From Phyllobates terribilis (Eukaryota), in assembly GCF_046119375.1 (NCBI RefSeq), contig NW_027362768.1:328042001-328106000 (forward strand): a DNA stretch of 64,000 nucleotides, written 5' to 3'. Below are positions 1 to 42,383 of this stretch, one piece after another; position 1 is the first letter of the stretch, and each line of letters opens with the position of its first letter. The translations under genes were made by a program, and so were the position numbers. The notes below the pieces were generated by a model. The model saw only the letters and a program-made list of their open reading frames with translations, had not been told where the DNA came from and searched no databases.

Positions 1-1314
1 TAGCGATCTCGTTATGTGTGACAGGTAGCAACGATCAGGCCCCTGCTGTGAGATCGCTGATTGTTACAAAGCTTCCTGGACCATTCCTGGGTCGTTGCGC
101 TCCCGCTGGGCAGGGTGCATCGCTGTATTTGACACCTTGTCAACGACCTCGCTAGCGATTCAGAACGGAGACACGTAGAGGTGCATAAATTGGACTTTTC
201 TGCGTTCATCGTCCCCGATTGGTGGTCGCTACTGCGTCCTTGTTTTTTCAGATCCCACCAGCGTTCTCCGGCTGTGACTCCACTTTGAACAAATCAGACA
301 TCTTTAGCGAAGTAGGTATTGTTTGGGGTCTCAAATGAGTTTCCATTTTTAATTCATTTATAGGACATCTACCAATTATCTGCTATCATTGCTCTTCAGG
401 GAGTGAGGGCTTGGCTTCAATAGCGATCTCGTTATGTGTGACGGGGCACCAGGACCGTTAAAATACTGGCAGCAGTTGTCGCGGCAGGTCTTCGCATCGT
501 GGGTGTTTCTGCCATGTCCCACTGGTTGAAGGCCTGCAATTGCAGGATCGTTTGCACGCTATTCACAGAGCTCCACTTCCCCATTGGCTCGGTCCAGAGT
601 CCACAAAGCCAGGCGGACAGTACGTAATTGCATCACGTCGACGAAGAAAGTTTTGAAGCGTGCAACAGGCCAAAAGAACAGAGTCTATTGATTTCAGCTT
701 CATGTTAATTGGCGTATGAAAAACTCTGAAGCGGTTGGCCACGACAGCGTGTCAGAAAACGTGCTGTGTGGGTGTGTGTGCACGAGACCCCTAAAATATC
801 TGCCCATGCAAAAGCATATATATATACAGATAGAAGCCAAGCCCTCCCTCCCTGAAGAGCAATGATAGCAGATAATTGGTAGATGTCCTATAAATGAATT
901 AAAAATGGAAACTCATTTAAGACCCCAAACAATACCTACTTCGCTAAAGATGTGTAATTTGTTCAAAGTGGAGTCACAGCCGGAGAACGCTGGTGGGATC
1001 TGAAAAAACAAGGACGCAGTAGCGACCACCAATCGGGGACGATGAACGCAGAAAAGTCCAATTTATGCACCTCTACGTGTCTCAGTTCTGAATCGCTAGC
1101 GAGGTCGTTGACAAGGTGTCAAATACAGCGATGCACCCTGCCCAGCGGGAGCGCAACGACCCAGGAATGGTCCAGGAAGCTTTGTAACGATCAGCGATCT
1201 CACAGCAGGGGCCTGATCGTTGCTACCTGTCAGACATAACGAGATTGCTATTGCGTCACCAAAACGTGACTCATCAGCGATCTCGCTAGCGATCTCGTTA
1301 TGTGTGACGGGGCC
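1..1314. mobile_element. PIF/Harbinger-derived non-autonomous fold-back element (left end lies before the window)
   Basis: 1-418 is the reverse complement of 833-1250 with a few substitutions; right terminus ...GTGTGACGGGGCC at about 1314 followed by TTTA; the spacer holds a transposase relic. Confidence 0.8.
443..745 (-). pseudogene. C-terminal fragment of a Harbinger (HARBI1-like DDE) transposase with frameshift and stop
   Basis: Manual translation: VANRFRVFHTPINMKLKSIDSVLLACCTLQNFLRRRDAITYCPPGFVDS / DRANGEVELCE*RANDPAIAGLQPVGHGRNTHDAKTCRDNCCQYFNGPGA; resembles the RF...ACCxLHNFL region and C-terminal RD...YF motif of Harbinger transposases (recognised from memory). Confidence 0.75.
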
Positions 1315-1490
1315 TTTACTTGCAGGACCCCTCACCCTCCACAAAAACAAACAAACAAAAAAAAACACTTCTGGAAATGGTCAAATCAACCATTACGTCT
1401 AGTACCAGACTTGTACTACTTTTTCTCTACAGAGGACTTTTCAGCAGTCTCATTATCATCAGAGACTGTGTGCTCCTAACAGGTAACTCC

Positions 1491-1741
1491 CCTATATACA
1501 TTAGATAATACAAGATCCACCATTCACAATAGGTGATATCACAGCTCACCTCCTCCTGTACAATGACTGATAACACCTCTATATACAGTAGATAACACAG
1601 GATCCACTATTCACAATAGGTGATATCACAGCTCACCTCCTCCTGTACAATGACTGATAACACCTCTATATACAGTAGATAACACAGGATCCACTATTCA
1701 CAATAGGTGATGTCACAGCTCACCTCCTCCTGTACAATGAC
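1491..1741. repeat. 87-bp minisatellite, about 3 copies
   Basis: Unit TACAATGACTGATAACACCTCTATATACAGTAGATAACACAGGATCCACTATTCACAATAGGTGATATCACAGCTCACCTCCTCCTG; a related degenerate piece lies near 6235-6270. Confidence 0.9.
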
Positions 1742-2224
1742 CTCTGCCCAGATTAGAAGATAATCATTACATACTTTGGCTCAGACTTTTCTTAGCTGTA
1801 GTATTTGTTGCTGCCAATTTACATGTGGCTTTCCAGAAAGTATAGGAAATGGAAGTCGAACATAAATCTTTGTTTCCAGTATGAAAATGACAAAATGTAA
1901 GTTTGTTTTTTTTCTTTTTGAGTAGATTACAATATGAAAAAAAAAAAAAAAAAAATCGGCACAACTAATTTGCCTCTTCAAAAGCACTGATCTATGTATG
2001 ATAGTAACTGGATTATGTAGACTATACTATGAGAAAATATCCCAAACGCACAATCATCATTGGTCAAGGGACTAGAGTCTAGCATCCCCACATAAGAAAC
2101 CGCAAAATCAAGCAATGCAGTACTCCTAACAGCATGCACAAAACAGGAAAAAAATGCATGTCGGGGCAGTGTTCCACTTTAGCTTACAAGTGGTGATGCT
2201 TACCATGGATTAAGTGGAGCACTG

Positions 2225-2261
2225 CCCCGACGTGCGTTTCGCATGTAGCTTTCTCAAGGGG
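2225..2261 (-). ncRNA. Minimal type I hammerhead ribozyme motif, U3-A8 core variant
   Basis: Minus strand CCCC-UUGAGAA-A-GC-UACAU-GC-GAAA-C-GCAC-GUC-GGGG: 4-bp stem I, 2-bp stem II, 2-bp stem III, GUC cleavage triplet. Confidence 0.65.
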
Positions 2262-2420
2262 AGCTGATTGTGTCCTATCTGGTATTTATGATGTGTCCAC
2301 AGATGCCAAATTAGGAGCGCGCATGAGCGCTGTTGCTCCCGCCATTGCGATGCGCTGCTCCTAATTTGGCATCTGTGGACACATCATAAATACCAAATAG
2401 GACATAATCAGCCGACACCT

Positions 2421-2457
2421 CCCCTTGAGAAAGCTACATGCGAAACGCTTATCGGGG
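2421..2457 (+). ncRNA. Second copy of the minimal hammerhead, stem III damaged
   Basis: CCCC-UUGAGAA-A-GC-UACAU-GC-GAAA-C-GCUU-AUC-GGGG; G16.2 to A breaks the C15.2 pair. Confidence 0.55.
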
Positions 2458-4168
2458 CAGTGCCGACGCCTCCCCTCATCATGGGTATGCATCACCACTT
2501 GTAAGCTAGTCTCCTGTTTCACTTTGTGTTTATGGCCACTGCACACGGTGATTAGAAACTGGCTGCATAGGTCTAGTATGTACTATACACTGCTTCATAC
2601 CTTGGATTTATTTGGTGACTATCCTGACATTGTTGCAGTGTATGGTAATTATTTAAAAAAATGAATGTTTCTAATATAGTTTTTAATTCTGGTGGTTTAT
2701 GGTTACTCCAATTTCTAGTTTGTGCATAATCCAGTTACTATAGATACCATAATGCCAGTATACAAGGAGCAGATATCGTCTCCTCCAACTCACTTTTTGA
2801 CAGAGTACAGTCCTGTGTCTCACCAGACCATTCAGACGCTGTCCGTCACATCCTCCTCCTGCCTCCATGCTAGTAGAGACTTGACCTCTGAATCTGCTCC
2901 TATTTCACAAGTTGTACATTTAGGAGTTTTCAGGTTTAAAACTGGTTGAAATCACACTTTTTTCTGCACAAAACATTTTTGGGGTTTTTGGTGTTCTTAC
3001 ACCAGTCCCAGCTTCAAACGGTGGTAGATACTTGTTCTACAGACCATAATAAAGTGATTACAGTCCAGGTAAATCTGTCTTTGGTAGTGTGGGAGAAAAC
3101 TATTGCATAGGGAGAGGACATAGACGCTCCATGCAGGTGTTGTCCATGCCATCCCCCTTTGATGATTCTTGCCTTATGTTCTGAGGATGCGGATACAGGG
3201 GGATGTGCTACTGTCCAGTGCCTCTAGGTTATTGGGAATCACATACTGGGGGTATTTTGCATCTGCGTCTTTTGTTTGCGTAGGGCTCTTTCCTACATCC
3301 ATGATCATTGATCTGATCAGATTACAATGCATGGACCGGCCGTGCATCTCCCGAGCCAGAGTGTGACTGCTTCATAGATTTCAATGAGGCCGTCACGCTC
3401 AGGGTTGGGAGACGCACGGCCGGTCTGTGCATTGTAATTGAGATCGGATATATGAAATAGCCCTTACAGCGACCACGCGGCATATGCATGATTGGCTGCA
3501 GTGGTCACAAGCTTTAGTGGTGCCGTCACTGCTGCAGCCTGGGGAGCAGGGGACTTGGTAAAGCCCAACATTGATGGGAGTTCAGAACTAAAAAATGCAA
3601 TTGTTTTTTTTTTCCTCTCTCTAGACTGAAAAAAAATGTGTAGTTAAGAGTGGATGCGATTTCATAAAAAAACCACCATTGGTTGTAATGTGATATTGCA
3701 CCCAGGTTCTAATAGATACGACCATCCGCCTCTGTTGTATATTTTGAAGAACTCCGCTATAGATTGCAGTTAGCGCTCCACTACTATCATGTTTTTTTTT
3801 TTTTTTTACCAGAAACAGCGCCACTCTTGTCTATGAGTTGTGTCTGGTATTACAGCTGTGGCACATTCATGTAAGCATGGCTAAGCTGCACTACCAGACA
3901 CAGCCAGGCCTGGTGCGGTTTTTCAAAATTAATTTCTGAATGTTTTTTCTATTAACCATCCCTCTCACCTCATACTGAATTTCTAGAAGGTTCGTATCAG
4001 GCCATTAGATCTTAAGTTAAGAAGCTAAAATATGCAAATTGTCTCTTCAGAGAGGAAGAGGATTTGAGCTCTAGCGCCATCGATTGGAAGCAGCGATCCT
4101 ACAAGTCAAGATTGACCTTTTAATGAGCCTTGTTATAGGACTTGGGGGAAAAAAAAAGTCAGACCAGA

Positions 4169-4229
4169 ATCTCAATTTGCAGACATGATGTTTTGGGGTA
4201 TTGCCCCTCGTCAGTGCAAAGTGTGAGAT
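4169..4229 (-). ncRNA. Type I hammerhead ribozyme copy with probably inactivating G12A
   Basis: Minus strand AUCUCA-CAC-UUUGCA-CUGACGA-GGGG-CAAUA-CCCC-AAAA-CA-UCA-UGUC-UGCAAA-U-UGAGAU; the GAAA box reads AAAA. Confidence 0.7.
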
Positions 4230-4275
4230 CTGGTTTGGCTTACCCCTTAGATCCCAGTCTTAGCCTCTCACCCAG

Positions 4276-4336
4276 ATCTCATACATTGCACTGACGAGGG
4301 GCGACACCCTGAAACACAGTGTCTGCAAATTGAGAT
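4276..4336 (+). ncRNA. Extended type I hammerhead ribozyme with intact catalytic core
   Basis: AUCUCA-UACA-UUGCA-CUGACGA(4291-4297)-GGGG-CGACA-CCCU-GAAA(4311-4314)-CA-CAG-UGUC(cleavage after 4323)-UGCAA-AU-UGAGAU; stems I, II and III all pair and stem I has an internal loop. Confidence 0.8.
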
Positions 4337-5131
4337 TCTAGTTTGGCTTTTTTCCGAAGTCATATTACAAGGGTCGACATTGACTTGTAGGATTGCTGCT
4401 TCCAATAGGTGGCACCAGAATTCCAATCCTCTTCCTCTCTGAAGAGACAATTTGCATATTTAATTTCCCAGAGGAGCATGCAATACTGGCGTGTCAGACA
4501 TGGCATGTCGCTCTGCATAAGGAGAAAACGTACCCCTTAGAGCCAAGTAAAGAAGCTGAAATTCTCATTTAAGACAAGGCGTGTGATCTTGGATTCTTAA
4601 AGAGTAACCGTTTGTTTTAATTTTTCATAAATCAATAGTTCACATGAAAATAAACTTATTTATCATATCAGAGAAATCTGCTTCTTTCCCATCATTCAAT
4701 AATACATTCAGGTGTAAAAAACAGTACTCAGTGAAGATAGATTTTTCCAATGACTGAGATTGGTGATGACAGTTGGTGTTTTTAAAATTCTATGGAGGAG
4801 GCGGAGCCAGAGGCAGACCAGTTCTCCATAGAATTTTATGAGTACTAACTGTCATCTATCTTAGTAATGGGGAAAAAATATCTGTATTTACTGAAGACAG
4901 GTTTTACCTGTGAATTGGGAATGAAAAATCATTACTAGAAGAGAAAGGAGCAGATTTCTGCTATATAATTTATAATTAGGGGTAAAAAAAGATCAACTCC
5001 ACCTCTCATCTCCATCCAAGATCACGTTATTACCAAGCCTCCGGCACTAAGACCGGTCAAAGATCTACAACATTAGAGAAAATGCCACTGATATGCTTCA
5101 ATGCTAATTTTTTTTTTTCTATTTCATTAAG

Positions 5132-5343
5132 GAACATCTACATTTGCGATACCGGCCCCCCCACCGCCTCCTCCACTATTCGCGCCTGTTCCTCCTCCAA
5201 GTAAAGATGTGCCAAGTGACTTGGCCGTGCCCTCTGTGAACGGTACAGATCGTGGTGCCCTACTCCACTCCATCCAGAGCTTCAAGAAAGGAGGGCTGAA
5301 GAAAGCGGTGACGGCTGACCACAGCGCCCCCCGGATCAGCTGA
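5132..5343 (+). CDS. PXK: PXK (PX domain-containing kinase-like protein, MONaKA) last coding exon: proline-rich stretch plus WH2 domain
   Basis: Polypyrimidine tract and AG at 5130-5131; phase-1 translation (G)TSTFAIPAPPPPPPLFAPVPPPSKDVPSDLAVPSVNGTDRGALLHSIQSFKKGGLKKAVTADHSAPRIS* matches the vertebrate PXK C-terminus; syntenic with PDHB. Confidence 0.92.
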
Positions 5344-7886
5344 GTGTGAATGTCACCACTTATCGCTGAATAGCAAGTTTTCGGTAAAAAGAACACCTTA
5401 CGTTTTAAAGGAAGGTTAATGGTAGGAAAGTAGAGGCCCTGACTCTCCTAGTAAACATGCCTTGCAGACGAGACACCATAGATAAAAATATATACCTGTA
5501 AATTGAGGACTGGTTGTGGGTTGTGCTGCCGTCCAGCTCTTCACATAGGGAGTCCTCACCATCCTGCAAGAAATGGACCCAGCGCAGGGACCCTCAGCGG
5601 CAGCTTCAGCCATACCTTTATACCAGTAATGAAAGCAGAAGAACATTTGGGGACTTTTTCCTGCACTTTTTAAAAAAGGTGGATTTGGGCAAGACTTAAA
5701 ATTAGAGTTTCATTTTCCTCCCCTGACCCAGATGCACCAGGCAAGATGGGGTCCAGCACCTATCCAGCGCTTCTGGCATAGTCTGCGGATACTCCAGAAA
5801 TGTCTATGATGGGAATACTCCTTTAAAAGGAATATTTCATCACAAAGTACAATATTCTCCCTGACCTATTAGACTCCTAGGCCCCTGATTCACTGGCGTA
5901 GCACACGAATAAGAAGCATCAAATTCATTAAGACGTGCATTCCCCTTAATAAATTCGGTGCGTCTCATCAGTAGCGTGTGCCATGCCAGAAAGGTTGCTC
6001 CAACCAGGGACCGGAGTAACATTTCTAGCATAAGCAACGTCACTGCGATTCATTAATTTGACTGGTGAGCACAGCCACGTACTGACTCCTCACCAAAACT
6101 GGCGCGTACATGGCGACAGTCGCACATTTTTTGCGACTTCTCAGTGATTGATGAATCGGGGCCTTAGTTCCTTCAAGGAACAACAGTCTCATTATCACAG
6201 ACAGAATTATAAAACATTACCTTCAGATACATTAGCCACCATTCACAATAGGCGACGTCACAGCTCACCTCTTCCCCCTCCCTTCATAATTACTTTGGAC
6301 AGTCAGTACAGTCTATTGCTACTAGTGTCCAATGCCAAGTTTTGGGGTTTTTTTACATTAAAAATGAGCTGTGATTTGAAAAATTTTAAATAAAAATCGA
6401 TTTAAATCTGTTTTTAACAGTTGGTCATTTTCTGATGACTTTTTTTTGCACCTAGTGCACAGCCTCCTATCTGTAGGGCCGCCTTTTCCACACCCGCTTG
6501 TTATATGGGCATCACTCTCCTTCTGTGAGTGACCCATTTACCCCCAGCCCTGGGAAATGTGTTGGGGGGGCAACTTATCTTATACGATAAGGAGGATCTG
6601 TAGATCTAGAACATAACACATTCCACCTGGCGGCGTGATTTATCAATTTAGCAGTTAATATTTCCATTAGGACGGTCACATGTGTTTACAGTGTTCATTA
6701 TATTACCAAAATCCGTTACATGATCTGGGCAGGGGAGAAGATGGAAGGTACAACCGGCGAAGAATCATCTTGTTTTTTTTTTTGCACTTTAATAAATCTG
6801 TTTTAAGAGGGATCTAGTGTATGATTATCGGGCTCAGTAATACAATGTATATTCAGTCATATTTTTATTAAAAATAATAAACCCAAACTTTGGTCTCGTG
6901 TGAGTTTCCTTGATCTTAATTGGAATTACCCCGTTGACTTATCGCCATCATTATCTGTACATTTTAGCCTCCTCACCAAAGAATCAGAATAGAGAACAAA
7001 CCAATTTGTTAACCAATTCATGAGGTTTTTTTTTCCTTCTAATTTTGTTTAAATTTACTTAGGATTTGTTTTCCTATTTTTATTTACACACTATGTTCCC
7101 CATAAGGTCTTAAAAGACCTTTTGAAGGGTATTTTTTTAATTTTTTATTATTTCACCTGTAACTGGGGCTGGTATATTATCCCCAGTTACAGGAAATTTT
7201 TGTTTCCTTGCTACAGAGGTGAGAGGATCTCTCAAGAACCAGCATCTCCTGCTCCCCCTTTACACCCAACAATCACCGAGTCCAGAAGAGGAAGCACTGT
7301 CAGTGCTTAATAACCTGTATACACAAAAGCTGGTTCACAGCTGTGTATACTGAGATGGAGAAGGTAAACATGGTAATAATACGGCATGAAAACGTGCCCT
7401 GAACCTGTCCGGAGCCTCAGCTGCTGCAGAACCCAGTGCCACAGCAGTTTACAGATTAAGTGTGGCATTGCAGCTCAGCGGTACTGAAGTGGCGGCACTA
7501 CCACATGTATACTAAAAAACAGTTGACAATATTTGGAAGAAAGCAGCCATGTTTTACCAATCCTGGCCAAATCTTGTAATTTCTTTGTTAATCATTGTGG
7601 GGTAGGCTCAATAGAAATTAACAAAATCAGAAATGGAGGAGAAAAAAAAAAAAAAACAGAACCCACCCCAAAACTAAATAAATTCCAGATTTTATTTGTA
7701 TACAAAGCAACATTGTACATGTTCTCATAGTCACAGCGTGTGGACCTCTGAGTTCATACAGACGTATGGGTTATTTCTAATAAATATTGTCTGTGCTGTA
7801 ACATGTCTCCCATATATGATGAACTTGGTGGAGTGTCTTAAAGTGACTGCATATGCTAAGACATCTAGTACAGATTATCCAGTGTC

Positions 7887-8086
7887 TTGAAGGGTTGGCC
7901 TACGCCGATCTCTTCCCTCTCAGTAGTCACATCCCCACTTACTAGGTGGGACGTCTGTGTGATCGCCAGGTATCGTGCCCGGATCCTAGTCTAATGAACA
8001 GGACAGGTGCACGATACCTGCTGATAGTGCAGAAGTCATTGGCACTACCTGATGCAGAGGTGAGTGGCGCTGGCCAACCCCTTTAA
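7887..8086. mobile_element. Kolobok/T2-type palindromic MITE in the probable PDHB 3' UTR
   Basis: TTGAAGGGTTGGCC...GGCCAACCCCTTTAA termini with a TTAA-type target. Confidence 0.6.
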
Positions 8087-23288: not shown

Positions 23289-25947
23289 CATAGAATCATA
23301 GAATGGTAGAGTTGGAAGGGACCTCCTGGGTCATCTGGTCCAACCCCCTGCTCAAAGCAGGATTCACTAGATCATCTCAGACAGATGTCTGTCCAGCCTC
23401 TGTTTGAAGACGTCCATTGAAGGGGAACTCACCACCTCTCGTGGCAGCCTGTGCCACTCATTAATCACCCTAACTGTCAAAAAGTTTTTTCTAATATCTA
23501 ATCTGTGTCTCCTCCCATTCAGTTTCATCCCATTGCTTCTAGTCTTTCCTTGTGCAAATGAGAATAAAGATGATCCTTCTACAATGTGACAGCCCTTGAC
23601 ATATTTGTAGACAGCTATTAAGTCTCCTCTCAGTCTTCTTTTTTGCAAGCTAAACATTCCCAAATCCTGCAACCGTTCCTCATAGGACATGGTTTGCAGA
23701 CCAGTCACCATTCTGGTCGCTCTTCTCTGAACTTGCTCCAGTTTGTCTATGTCTTTTTTAAAATGTGGTGCCCAAAACTGTACACAGTATTCCAGATGAG
23801 GTCTGACCAAAGAGGAGTAAAGACCGATAATGACTTCACGTGATCTAGACTGTATGCTTCTGTTAATACATCCCAGAATTGTATTTGCCTTTTTTGCTGC
23901 TGCATCACACTGTTGACTCATGTTCAGTCTATGATCTATTAGTATACCTAAGTCTTTTTCACATGTACTGTTGCTTAGCTCTATTCCTCCCATTCTGTAT
24001 ATGCTTTTTTCATTTTTATTGCCCAGATGTAGTACTTTGCATTTTTCCCTGTTAAAAACCATTCTGTTGGTTGCTGCCCACTGCTCCAGTTTATTTAGGT
24101 CTTTTTGAATCCTCTCTCTCTCTTCTCTAGTATTAGCTATCCCTCTTAGCTTTGTATCATCAGCAAATTTAATCAGTTTACCCTCAATTCCTTCATCTAA
24201 ATCATTGATAAAGATGTTGAACAATACAGGTCCCAGGACGGAGCCCTGTGGTACCCCACTTGAGACATTCATCCAGCTGGATGTGAAGCCATTTACAACC
24301 ACCCTTTGAGTCCGATCACTAAGCCAGTTATGAATCCACCTAACAGTTGCCTGGTCCATTGCATACTTGGTCATTTTTTCAATAAGGATGGTGTGAGATA
24401 CTTTGTCAAATGCTTTGCTGAAGTCAAGATATACTATATCTACAGCATTTCCCTGATCCACCCAGTCAGTGATTCTGTCATAGAAGGAAATTAAGTTAGT
24501 CTGACATGACTTGTTAGTTACAAACCCATGCTGACTCTGGTTAATCACTTCATTCTTATCCATGTACTTACATACATGTTGTTTAATAATTTGTTCAAAG
24601 ATCTTTCCTGGTATAGAAGTCAGACTCACCGGCCTATAGTTCCCTGGGTCCACCTTCTTCCCCTTTTTGAAGATAGGAACAACATTTGCTCTTCTCCAGT
24701 CTTCTGGGACTTCTCCTGTTCTCCAAGAATTTTCAAAGATTATGGAGAGTGGTTCTAAAATTTCTTCTACGATCTCCTTCAGTACTCTGGGGTGTAATTC
24801 ATCTGGACCTGGAGACTTGAACTCATTTATGTTAGCTAAATATTCCCTCACAATCTTTCTGTTTACAGATAACTTGGATTCCTCTATTCCTTTAAAAGGA
24901 CAGTGAAGATCAGTTGATGTTACATTTTCTTTCTGAGAGAAAACAGATGCAAAATAGGAATTAAAAAGTTCGGCCTTCTCAACATCCTCTCTTACCATTT
25001 CTCCATTTTCATCCTGTAAAAATCCTATAGCATCTTTGACTTTTCTTTTACTTTTGACATACCCCCAAAATCCTTTTTTATTGCTTTTGACATCTCTTGC
25101 AAGCCTTAATTCATTGTCAGCTTTAGCTAACCTGATACGTGCCCTGCAGGATCTGCAGACTGCATTATAATCTTCTTTAGATATGCCTCCCTCTTTCCAT
25201 TTAATAAACATTTCTTTCTTTCTTTTTAGCATGTGTTTAAGTTCTGTGTTCACCCATCCTGGTTTCCTTAAATGCTTCCCATTCTTCCTACTTTTCGGGA
25301 TTGTTAACGATTGTGCTTTGAGAATCTCATTTTTAAAAATTTCCCATCCTTCCTGGACATTTTTGTCCTTAAGGACATCCAGCCATTGGATCCCTCCTAT
25401 TCTCTTTCTGAGTCTCTTAAAATCTGCCTTTCTAAAATCTAACCTTGAAGTTTGAGTCTTCACATGTCTTCCTCCTCTAGTTATCCAAAATTCTATAATA
25501 GCATGATCGCTGCCTCCTAGGGTCCCAGCCACCTTTACCTCCTCAACCATTTCCTCCCTGTTTATAAGAATTAGATCCAAAGTAGCAGATCCCCTTGTTT
25601 TCTCCCCTACCTTTTGGAAGATAAAGTTGTCAGCAAGAGAGGATAAGAATTTGCTTGACCTGTTAGTTTTACTTGAGAGAGATTCCCAACAAATGTCTGG
25701 ATAGTTGAAATCTCCCATGACCACTACGTCATATTTTTTGGAGAACTTGGTCATTTGATGCATAAAGAGTTCATCCATATCTTCAGCTTGCCCAGGTGGC
25801 CTGTAGTAAATGCCTACAATGGTGTCCTTTCCATTGTTCTCTCCTTGTATTCTTACCCAAACAGTTTCCACAGAACTCCTAGTCTCTGAAGCTTCAATCT
25901 CTGTGCAGATATACGCTTTTCTAACATACAATGCAACACCTCCTCCT
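23289..25947 (-). mobile_element. CR1-clade LINE, 5'-truncated, young
   Basis: 3' end ...ATTCTATGATTCTATG (CR1 octamer tail) at about 23289; breaks off just upstream of GGGVALYV in the endonuclease domain. Confidence 0.95.
23367..25931 (-). CDS. CR1 ORF2: apurinic endonuclease (N-terminally truncated) plus reverse transcriptase
   Basis: 854 uninterrupted codons with GDFNYPDI, SDH, GNYRPVSLT, DFSKAFD, GVPQGSVLGP and FADD motifs. Confidence 0.93.
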   Translation of the reverse strand: MYVRKAYICTEIEASETRSSVETVWVRIQGENNGKDTIVGIYYRPPGQAEDMDELFMHQMTKFSKKYDVVVMGDFNYPDICWESLSSKTNRSSKFLSSLADNFIFQKVGEKTRGSATLDLILINREEMVEEVKVAGTLGGSDHAIIEFWITRGGRHVKTQTSRLDFRKADFKRLRKRIGGIQWLDVLKDKNVQEGWEIFKNEILKAQSLTIPKSRKNGKHLRKPGWVNTELKHMLKRKKEMFIKWKEGGISKEDYNAVCRSCRARIRLAKADNELRLARDVKSNKKGFWGYVKSKRKVKDAIGFLQDENGEMVREDVEKAELFNSYFASVFSQKENVTSTDLHCPFKGIEESKLSVNRKIVREYLANINEFKSPGPDELHPRVLKEIVEEILEPLSIIFENSWRTGEVPEDWRRANVVPIFKKGKKVDPGNYRPVSLTSIPGKIFEQIIKQHVCKYMDKNEVINQSQHGFVTNKSCQTNLISFYDRITDWVDQGNAVDIVYLDFSKAFDKVSHTILIEKMTKYAMDQATVRWIHNWLSDRTQRVVVNGFTSSWMNVSSGVPQGSVLGPVLFNIFINDLDEGIEGKLIKFADDTKLRGIANTREERERIQKDLNKLEQWAATNRMVFNREKCKVLHLGNKNEKSIYRMGGIELSNSTCEKDLGILIDHRLNMSQQCDAAAKKANTILGCINRSIQSRSREVIIGLYSSLVRPHLEYCVQFWAPHFKKDIDKLEQVQRRATRMVTGLQTMSYEERLQDLGMFSLQKRRLRGDLIAVYKYVKGCHIVEGSSLFSFAQGKTRSNGMKLNGRRHRLDIRKNFLTVRVINEWHRLPREVVSSPSMDVFKQRLDRHLSEMI

Positions 25948-30135: not shown

Positions 30136-30822
30136 ATGACGGATCCTGTGACGCTGAATGTCGGGGGCCACGTGTACACCACCTCGCTCTCCACCCTGAC
30201 CCGTTATCCGGATTCCATGTTGGGCGCGATGTTCCGCGGCGACTTCCCCACTGCCAGAGACTCCCAGGGCAACTACTTTATCGACCGCGACGGATCTCTT
30301 TTCCGGTACATCCTGAATTTCCTCCGGACGTCGGAGCTCACTCTGCCCGTAGACTTCAAAGAGTTCGATCTGCTGCGGAAAGAAGCCGATTTCTTCCAGG
30401 TCGAACCCTTAATACAATGCCTCAACGACCCCAAACCTTTGTATCCCACGGACACTTTCGAAGAAGTGGTGGAACTGTCGAGCACGAGGAAACTATCCAA
30501 GTATTCTAACCCGGTGGCCGTGATCATCACCCAGCTGACGATCACCACCAAGGTGCACGCCTTACTGGAGGGCATCGCCAACCATTTCACTAAGTGGAAC
30601 AAGCACATGATGGACACTCGGGATTGCCAAGTCTCTTTTACTTTCGGGCCGTGCGACTACCACCAGGAGGTCTCCCTTAGGGTCCACCTGATGGAGTATA
30701 TCACAAAGCAAGGCTTCACGATCCGGAACACCCGGGTGCATCACATGAGCGAGCGGGCCAATGAGAACACCGTGGAGCACAACTGGACTTTTTGCAGACT
30801 AGCGAGGAAGACGGATGACTGA
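30136..30822 (+). CDS. KCTD6: KCTD6 main coding exon (BTB/T1 domain, Cullin3 adaptor)
   Basis: TTAG acceptor then MTDPVTLNVGG...FIDRDG...NWTFCRLARKTDD*; 9 + 228 = 237 aa. Confidence 0.97.
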   Translation: MTDPVTLNVGGHVYTTSLSTLTRYPDSMLGAMFRGDFPTARDSQGNYFIDRDGSLFRYILNFLRTSELTLPVDFKEFDLLRKEADFFQVEPLIQCLNDPKPLYPTDTFEEVVELSSTRKLSKYSNPVAVIITQLTITTKVHALLEGIANHFTKWNKHMMDTRDCQVSFTFGPCDYHQEVSLRVHLMEYITKQGFTIRNTRVHHMSERANENTVEHNWTFCRLARKTDD

Positions 30823-40809: not shown

Positions 40810-42383
40810 CACTACTCAAAAAAATAAAGGGAACACTTAAACAACAGAATATAACTCCAAGTAAATCAAACTTCTGTGAAATCAAACTTAGGAAGCAACA
40901 CTGATTGACAATCAATTTCACATGCTGTTGTGCAAATGGAATAGATAATAGATGGAAATTATTGGCAATTATCAAGACACCCTCAATAAAGGAATGGTTC
41001 TGCAGGTGTGGACCACAGACCACATCTCAGTACCAATGCTTTCTGGCTGATGTTTTGGTCACTTTTCAATGTTGGTTGTGCTTTCACACTTGTGGTAGCA
41101 TGAGACGGACTCTACAACCCACAGAAGTTGCTCAGGTAGTGCAGCTCAGCCAGGATGGCACATCAATGCGAGCTGTGGCAAGAAGGTTTGCTGTGTCTGT
41201 CAGCGTAGTGTCCAGAGGCTGGAGGCGCTACCAGGAGACAGGCCAGTACACCAGGAGACGTGGAGGGGGCTGTAGGAGGGCAACAACCCAGCAGCAGGAC
41301 CGCTACCTCCGCCTTTGTGCAAGGAGGAACAAGAGGAGCACTGCCAGAGCCCTGCAAAATTACTTCCAGCAGGCCACAAATGTGCATGTGTCTGCACAAA
41401 CGGTTAGAAACCGACTCCATGAGGGTGGTATGAGGGCCCGATGTCCACAGATGGGGTTTGTGCTCACAGCCCAACACCGTGCAGGACGCTTTGCATTTGC
41501 CGCAGAACACCAGGATTGGCAAAGTCGCCACTGGCGCCCTGTGCTCTTCACAGATGAAAGCAGGTTCACACTGAGCACATGGGACAGACGTGACAGAGTC
41601 TGGAGACGCCGTGAAGAGTGATCTGCTGCCTGCAACATCCTTCAGCATCACCGGTTTGGCAGTGGGTCAGTAATGGTGTGGGGTGGCATTTCTTTGGAGG
41701 GCCGCACAGCCCTCTATGTGCTCGCCAGAGGTAGCCTGACTGCCATTAGGTACCGAGATGAGATCCTCAGACCCCTTGTGAGACCATATGCTGGTGCGAT
41801 TGGCCCTGGGTTCCTCCTAATGCAGGACAATGCCAGACCTCATGTGGCTGGAGTGTGTCAGCAGTTCCTGCTAGATGAAGGCATTGAAGCTATGGACTGG
41901 CCCGCCCGTTCCCCAGACCTGAATCCGATTGAGCACATCTGGGACATCATGTCTCGCTCCATCCACCAACGTCACGCTGCACCACAGACTGTCCAGGAGT
42001 TGGCGGATGCTTTAGTTCAGGTCTGGGAGGAGATCCCACAGGAGACCATCCACAACCTCATCAGGAGCATGCCCAGGCGTTGTAGGGAGGTCATACAGGC
42101 ACGTGGAGGCCACACACAATACTGAGCCTCATTTTGACTTGTTTTAAGGACATTACATCAAAGTTGGATCAGCCTGTAGTGTGTTTTTCCACTTTAATTT
42201 TGGGAGTGACTCCAAATCCAGGCCTCCATTGGTTAATAAATTTGATTTCCATTGATGATTTTTGTGTGATTTTGTTGTCAGCACATTCAACTTTATACAG
42301 AACAAAGTATTCAATGAGAATATTTCATTCATTCAGATCTAGGATGTGTTATTTGAGTGTTCCCTTTATTTTTTTGAGCAGTG
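40810..42383 (+). mobile_element. Full-length Tc1-like DNA transposon (DD34E)
   Basis: TA-CACTACTCAAAAAAATAAAGGGAACAC...GTGTTCCCTTTATTTTTTTGAGCAGTG-TA. Confidence 0.95.
41100..42125 (+). pseudogene. Tc1 transposase with a single in-frame TGA at 41619-41621
   Basis: ORFs 40905-41621 and 41673-42125 share a frame; TDESRF, QDNARPH and DLNPIEH, with 34 residues between the second D and E. Confidence 0.9.

Follow-up and report, generated by a model that had tools for sequence, protein, structure and literature searches.

Penelope-like elements (PLEs) of the Neptune EN+ type are the closest described relatives of the element considered here. In the parts of two reports that deal with their structure (PMC8557442, PMC3846280), these elements encode a single ORF with a reverse transcriptase (RT) and, at its C-terminus, a GIY-YIG domain, along with a Cys-rich linker that marks both Neptune and Nematis, and they carry tandem or inverted pseudo-LTRs (pLTRs), a 5′-truncated inverted copy, a one-sided extension and a pLTR hammerhead. 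As typical of PLEs in general, the two reports name inverted 5′-truncated copies, tails on one side and junctions that are palindromic. The minimal PLE hammerheads presented by Cervera and de la Pena in 2014, as far as the sections on these motifs go, are type I ribozymes with an extra nucleotide between A9 and G10.1, a G10.1-C11.1 pair, a palindromic helix III and, in some cases, a U3-A8 core (PMC4209133). The same source mentions opposite-strand hammerhead pairs 100-700 bp apart and gives approximately 1,300 U3-A8 matches in Schistosoma. Another comparison is provided by PAc, a Poseidon element of the green anole, where a pLTR hammerhead is described as lying beside the start codon (Frangieh et al. 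2024, PMC11167929). Finally, non-LTR retrozymes are portrayed as non-coding, PLE-related sequences with type I hammerheads, arranged as head-to-tail tandem monomers whose hammerheads are mostly canonical (PMC7229834; bioRxiv 10.64898/2026.07.22.740005).

The window analyzed here, a 64,000-nt stretch of the Phyllobates terribilis genome, contains a fold-back element that is best read, with a probability of roughly 80%, as two truncated Neptune-type PLE pLTRs joined head to head, likely through one old insertion, each with the U3-A8 minimal hammerhead of its family and each hammerhead now likely inactive. The window copy and its family share the pLTR and ORF features of Neptune elements listed above; unlike those elements, the copy itself lacks both an ORF and a direct target duplication, and its one-sided extension measures ~120 nt, compared with the tails of 30-40 bp given in PMC8557442. 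All of the hammerhead traits taken above from PMC4209133 recur here, the palindromic helix III at the level of the family, where it is 8 nt long (ACGCGCGU). Stem II has 2 bp, as opposed to 3-8 bp in the examples listed in that source, where the listed U3-A8 rows are from Schistosoma and the listed vertebrate rows are C3-G8. As in PAc, the hammerhead neighbors a start codon; PAc belongs to a different clade, however, and in the window’s family the predicted start ATG stands some 25-50 nt downstream of the hammerhead, with a predicted intron donor behind it.

A sequence-only reading of this DNA had placed two hammerhead motifs at 2225-2261 on the minus strand and 2421-2457 on the plus strand, and both are indeed found there. 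Each begins with CCCC of stem I, the core UUGAGAA and an extra A, continues with GC, UACAU, GC and GAAA, and ends with UC and GGGG; ahead of that UC stands CGCACG in the minus copy (read from 2261 to 2225) and CGCUUA in the plus copy (2421 to 2457). Both contain all elements of the type I core (a 3-8 pair, G5, A6, A9, G12, A13, A14, A15.1-U16.1 and H17), together with a 4-bp stem I, a 2-bp stem II and an intact GAAA. In the minus copy, the proposed layout of stem I, core, extra A, GAAA and GUC site holds, with the predicted cut between 2229 and 2228 and a stem III that reads ACGCACGU. The 2-bp stem III assigned to this copy is present in the sequence, although in a monomer it would close a 2-nt loop that is disallowed by the folding model. 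Stem III of the plus copy (ACGCUUAU) is broken, as had been claimed, by a C15.2 x A16.2 mismatch, and the triplet is AUC. A strict descriptor matched the minus copy and nothing else in the window; when the local sequence was shuffled by dinucleotides, a single match arose in 3 of 200 cases. The prediction that standard searches would miss the U3-A8 form was also correct: neither an Rfam scan of window positions 1-8000 with E allowed up to 10 nor one of the whole window at the gathering score reported a hammerhead.

The fold-back is real, but the limits first given for it, 2181..2508, are too narrow, for family homology extends from ~2029 to 2727. The inverted repeat itself occupies 2180-2508 (80% over 348 columns, spacer counted), and homology to the family follows 2350-2727 on the plus strand, 2353 to 2180 on the minus strand and 2145 to 2029 on the minus strand. 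The right arm (2350-2727, plus strand; 67-74% to family loci over ~420 columns) is a 5′-truncated pLTR reading rightward; it has a TATA-like CATAAATA at 2385-2392, predicted from the family pattern to be a promoter, and at 2481-2489 an ATG followed by GTATG, which by alignment is a decayed form of the family’s donor GTAAG. The left arm (2180-2353, minus strand; 72-76% to family loci) is a 5′-truncated pLTR reading leftward, in which the family pattern predicts a promoter at a TATA-like CATAAATA (2283-2290) and a start codon with an intron donor at an ATG followed by GTAAG (2199-2206). The arms meet head to head at 2350-2353, where ATGC is common to both, and the left arm has 29 more upstream bases. 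Further left, on the minus strand, lies a distal extension or tail of the pLTR family (2029-2145; 81.6% over 125 columns to locus L148). In four relatives (L148, L144, L142 and L139) this piece is colinear with the right arm and picks up approximately where the right arm stops; thus the distal extension is carried by the left arm and missing from the right. The distal end of the pLTR family is visible in the family alignment. Between the tail and the left arm, at the site of a ~200-nt left-arm deletion, is a 28-nt filler (2152-2179, plus strand) that is an inverted copy of 2212-2239 (25/28 identical) and likely represents a templated repair patch.

At the outer edges of the element, a 17-mer at 2001-2017 (minus strand) has an inverted partner at the right junction (2725-2741, plus strand), and a search for the exact pattern located it nowhere else in the genome; it might be a hairpin that already stood at the target or, alternatively, a patch templated during repair. 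No direct target duplication was found at the locus, the longest direct match between the flanks being 6 nt and out of place. Contigs of two other DNA runs (X2 and X6, from one study) overlap across both arms and the center junction without differences there, no single record spanning the whole, and the fold-back is therefore not an assembly artifact. In two presumed-RNA contig sets, the flanks were covered along with little of the hairpin.

In a search of the 10.6-Gb genome for relatives of the element, 40 candidates were scored and yielded 80 matches; identity reached ~76-81% at the best of the other loci. The proposed Penelope origin was borne out by two loci, L033 and L037, which carry the window’s pLTR together with RT and GIY-YIG remains. 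L033 has two window-type repeats in inverted orientation, one on either side of a broken ORF that contains the RT motifs GTAMG and YIDD, a CxxCxxC linker and a GIY-YIG end, and a 14-bp direct duplication lies outside the inverted pLTR pair; L037 has RT/EN sequence alongside a window-type pLTR, much like L033. Loci L031-L040 were chosen for their neighboring matches and serve as examples rather than as a measure of inversion frequency. A search with the RT piece yielded 42,971 candidates, and many open frames near 1,050 aa occurred among the 150 that were scored. Intact relatives possess one ORF of 1,053-1,055 aa that matches Pfam RVT_1 (E 2.7e-07), with a C-terminus that matches GIY-YIG clusters (Atlas score 0.97; family on 44% of members). 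Pfam on the full ORFs gave no GIY-YIG match, nor did a PDB sequence search; the GIY-YIG call is based on the motif plus the Atlas cluster match. The CCHH motif, whose two cysteines stand between GIY and YIG, reads YLATCPCDLHYVG in L068 and YYATSPCKKIYVG in the decayed L033, and the Zn-finger-like Cys linker between RT and EN reads CYPCGSCVAC in the former and YPCRHCVAC in the latter. The linker would make the clade Neptune-type, a placement drawn from this motif, which Nematis shares, rather than from a tree. For the window’s family, Nematis would be set aside by its host range. A search for a linked PLE ORF had also been suggested, and tblastn gave no match at E 0.01 in the window or the preceding 20 kb, as would be expected of a 5′-truncated copy.

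The predicted promoter and splice signals recur in the family. Among 34 family copies (one copy without an anchor was dropped), 21 have ATG(N0-2)GTRAG downstream of the core and 17 have YATAWA at -55 to -20 from it. TATAWA stands at -50 to -22 in 12 of 30 independent pattern loci, and at -110 to -82 in none of them.

A retrozyme origin, offered earlier alongside a Penelope one, found no support. The window element resembles retrozymes in its type I hammerhead, its lack of coding sequence and its relation to PLEs, whereas its pLTR is of the autonomous type, not a tandem monomer of 200-400 nt, and it forms a single inverted pair with no direct repeat of the element unit in window positions 1-8000. 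A better fit to the retrozyme description than the 2029-2727 element is a neighbor, a second fold-back at 4028-4461, with head-to-head canonical C3-G8 type I hammerheads, of which the plus copy at 4291 has an intact core and the minus copy is without G12. Its building block is a retrozyme-like unit of ~320 nt with 643 exact motif matches; L171 and L183 have the motif in tandem at a spacing of 317-320, and inversion, too, is seen at several of 20 loci.

That U3-A8 is a real compensatory core, as the sequence-only reading supposed, is evident from the genome-wide collection of copies, in which both the 3-8 pair and stem I covary across families. Related hammerhead patterns gave 12 and 366 genome matches, as opposed to 0 in reversed controls. 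The pattern with 366 matches leaves positions 3, 7 and 8 free, and positions 3 and 8 pair in 90 of the first 100 matches listed; by a hand count of these 100, in which copies are related, there were 55 U-A, 35 C-G, 5 U-G, 3 C-A and 2 others at 3-8. Stem I was scored in 30 loci, representing 20 clusters by downstream flank, using parts not fixed by the pattern. Pairs 3 and 4 of the stem each hold in 29 of the 30, with C-G, U-A and A-U swaps, while pairing in shuffles averaged 22.5 and 15.4, and 0 of 2,000 reached the observed value, by a statistic that ignores relatedness. Position 17 was C, U or A in all 30 loci and never G. The variant itself was already in print: U3-A8 has been reported as a natural, active covariation (PMC3088659), and the relevant portions of two papers from 2011 and 2014 used descriptors that admit it (PMC3088659, PMC4209133). 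An extra nucleotide between A9 and G10.1 had likewise been published for PLE hammerheads, in the motif descriptions of PMC4209133.

The best relatives of the window copy are 79% identical to it, in keeping with decay. Within the window’s family, the core keeps the majority letter at a rate of 0.88-0.91, only a little above the 0.83 of the downstream flank, and stem III, rich in CpG and subject to CpG decay, at a rate of 0.76. These rates were scored in 17 of 28 copies found by their tails, the other 11 having been dropped by eye for lack of an alignable hammerhead region. Judged from sequence, this profile is one of apparently neutral decay from a functional master.

A young U3-A8 family offers clearer versions of the same layout. 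In L116 and L120, inverted hammerheads flank an RT ORF with arms 98.5% alike, and L117 has a partial ORF. L118 (1182-2170) is a near-perfect, 900-bp pure fold-back with one arm extended and a 14-bp target duplication; its cores are 13 nt apart, the inversion lying within the 5′ flank of the hammerhead, and it is a clean model of the window’s fold-back layout. Target duplications of 12-14 bp were found in L033, L116 and L118, and none was clear in L034. A separate arrangement was observed in L119, a stretch that has no RT match and in which an array repeats head to tail every ~2.74 kb and includes four U3-A8 hammerheads, their palindromes intact; in this layout, cis dimers could form.

The two window hammerheads had also been proposed to act as a functional ribozyme pair, and it could be imagined that they still work together at the locus, cleaving as a dimer or being kept by the host. 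Both cores, both GAAA sequences and both copies of stem I are intact, and the divergent TATA-like boxes could yield two RNAs that meet in trans. The probability of such a working pair is nonetheless very small. The motifs lie on opposite strands, which excludes a cis dimer at this locus, and this opposite-strand pairing arises from the usual inverted-pLTR layout and is not a ribozyme device; RNAs from the predicted promoter of each arm would carry one hammerhead each and need a partner in trans. A read-through RNA would bury both motifs in a predicted hairpin of -244 to -247 kcal/mol, where the probability of stem I is near 0 on both strands. The palindromic helix III through which dimers form is present in the family and lost in both window copies, with stem III self-duplexes of -13.3 kcal/mol for the intact ACGCGCGU and -3.1 and -2.1 for the window’s ACGCACGU and ACGCUUAU, respectively. 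In monomer folds, which say nothing about ribozymes of the dimer type, the hammerhead is not the minimum-energy structure (z of 0.17 to -1.8). Even intact PLE hammerheads are weak cleavers, minimal ones being described as giving no cleavage as monomers and weak cleavage as dimers (in the assays of PMC4209133), and one as requiring its protein (in the account of PMC11167929). Survival of the cores, moreover, equals the decay rate of the family. By these predictions, both window hammerheads have likely been inactivated by decay.

The layout at first suggests a palindromic DNA-transposon MITE with TIRs at 2180 and 2508, a TA site and a chance hammerhead-like motif, since the terminal inverted repeat is near-perfect over 25 bp and TA is present at both ends. 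This idea was tried and refuted, because copies do not share the apparent termini and homology runs past them, continuing beyond 2508 to 2727 and resuming at 2145-2029. The 28 other loci listed are single arms that extend beyond the 2508-type boundary, without the 2180/2508 termini; the window repeat also flanks a PLE RT and the hammerhead motif covaries, leaving a MITE with next to no credibility. Considerably less far-fetched, though still improbable, is the insertion of one pLTR followed by the later addition of a second arm through DNA repair or replication fold-back, with the hammerhead pair as a by-product. The lack of a direct target duplication, the unique inverted flank 17-mer, the templated 28-nt patch and a left tail piece that begins ~11 nt before the right-arm end would all be in keeping with it, as would the changes common to the arms: over 124 scored columns, both arms keep the family majority in 105, depart from it together in 6 and have 7 and 5 private changes, several of the private ones lying where the alignment is poor. 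The six shared changes could stem from conversion or duplication after decay, and an inverted unique 17-mer without a direct duplication also fits a later DNA-level rearrangement. These features together suggest that later repair or conversion touched the locus. On the other side, other insertions of this and a sister family (L033, L116 and L118) also form inverted pairs in which one arm is extended and direct duplications are present, and insertion alone can therefore give the layout. DNA searches for an empty paralogous site with the flanks matched only the window locus, a result that does not imply rarity.

Head-to-head insertion of two truncated pLTRs thus remains the preferred account, and its steps may be envisioned as follows. 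The parent pLTR is predicted to have had the order TATA, hammerhead, ATG and intron donor, which would put the ribozyme at the 5′ end of the transcript, and, extrapolating from published PLE hammerheads, the parent hammerhead would cleave only as a dimer through its self-complementary ACGCGCGU. The inverted layout was likely made by the element’s own RT/GIY-YIG protein. It is conceivable that both target strands were primed at two start sites, giving one arm with the extension and one without. The in vitro section of the Poseidon work describes an anole protein that cuts and extends both target strands, with two RNA start sites delimiting the tail (PMC11167929), and two-strand priming of that type would produce two outward-facing arms, one of them extended. 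Alternatively, the fold-back may have self-primed at the ATGC microhomology, and self-priming at a palindromic junction is put forward as a proposal in the discussion of such junctions in PMC3846280. Repair at a later time likely cost the left arm ~200 nt, with the 28-nt inverted patch as its trace.

Several other features of the window were observed in passing. Palindromic repeats at 1-1250, 3305-3455 and 4656-4975 are probably MITEs, the first having 421-nt arms that are 98% complementary, and an 87-nt repeat occurs three times in tandem at 1479-1741, with a further piece at 6227. An 859-aa frame at 23367-25946 (minus strand) with AP endonuclease and RT domains belongs to a non-LTR retrotransposon unrelated to the fold-back. 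A frame at 30136-30822 (plus strand) with a BTB_2 (BTB/POZ) domain is probably a host exon, and a fragment of a Tc1-type transposase lies at 40905-41621 (plus strand).

Intact Neptune-type elements of this genome for the most part have C rather than U at core position 4. Among 19 loci fetched by RT match, C occupies this position (CCGANGA) in eight whose RT frames measure 759-1,064 aa, U in two whose frames are shorter and A in one, while eight show no motif; the C4 elements with long open RT frames are L066, L067, L068, L069, L070, L073, L078 and L079. Genome-wide, the C4 pattern had 766 matches versus 366 for U4, and the first 100 of the 766, counted by hand, comprised 89 with C-G, 6 with U-A and 5 unpaired at 3-8. 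In the window’s family, no C was found at position 4 in 17 copies. Some U4 copies of the C3-G8 class may represent CpG decay of C4, and in a viroid U4C is a known variant, slow yet viable (PMC3088659). As a tentative proposal that we consider rather doubtful, the Neptune-type elements of this genome may hold an undescribed natural series of cores: U3-U4-A8 in the window’s family, U3-C4-A8, C3-U4-G8 and, in most intact elements, C3-C4-G8, a series in which the 8-nt palindrome, stem I and the pairing of 3 with 8 persist while the normally conserved U4 is lost. In a limited look at the literature, neither U3-A8 nor C4 hammerheads were found reported for the Neptune elements of amphibians, and a paper by Lunse, Weinberg and Breaker on PLE hammerhead dimers (RNA Biol) may already describe such variants.

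Taken by itself, the locus is one decayed insertion of a known class of retrotransposon, whose U3-A8 core, extra A and opposite-strand motifs in inverted pLTRs are all in print, and it is of use as a compact example of a PLE insertion that yields fold-backs and as a case of a hammerhead form that Rfam misses. The larger value lies in the family survey, as the young elements of this genome offer U3-A8 and C4 variants for a side-by-side assay of what the hammerhead does in PLEs. If the core series is true, it would be a ready variant set for testing that role, and selection on the motif would be for a dimeric cleavage that is slow or protein-assisted, or else for the making of dimers as such.
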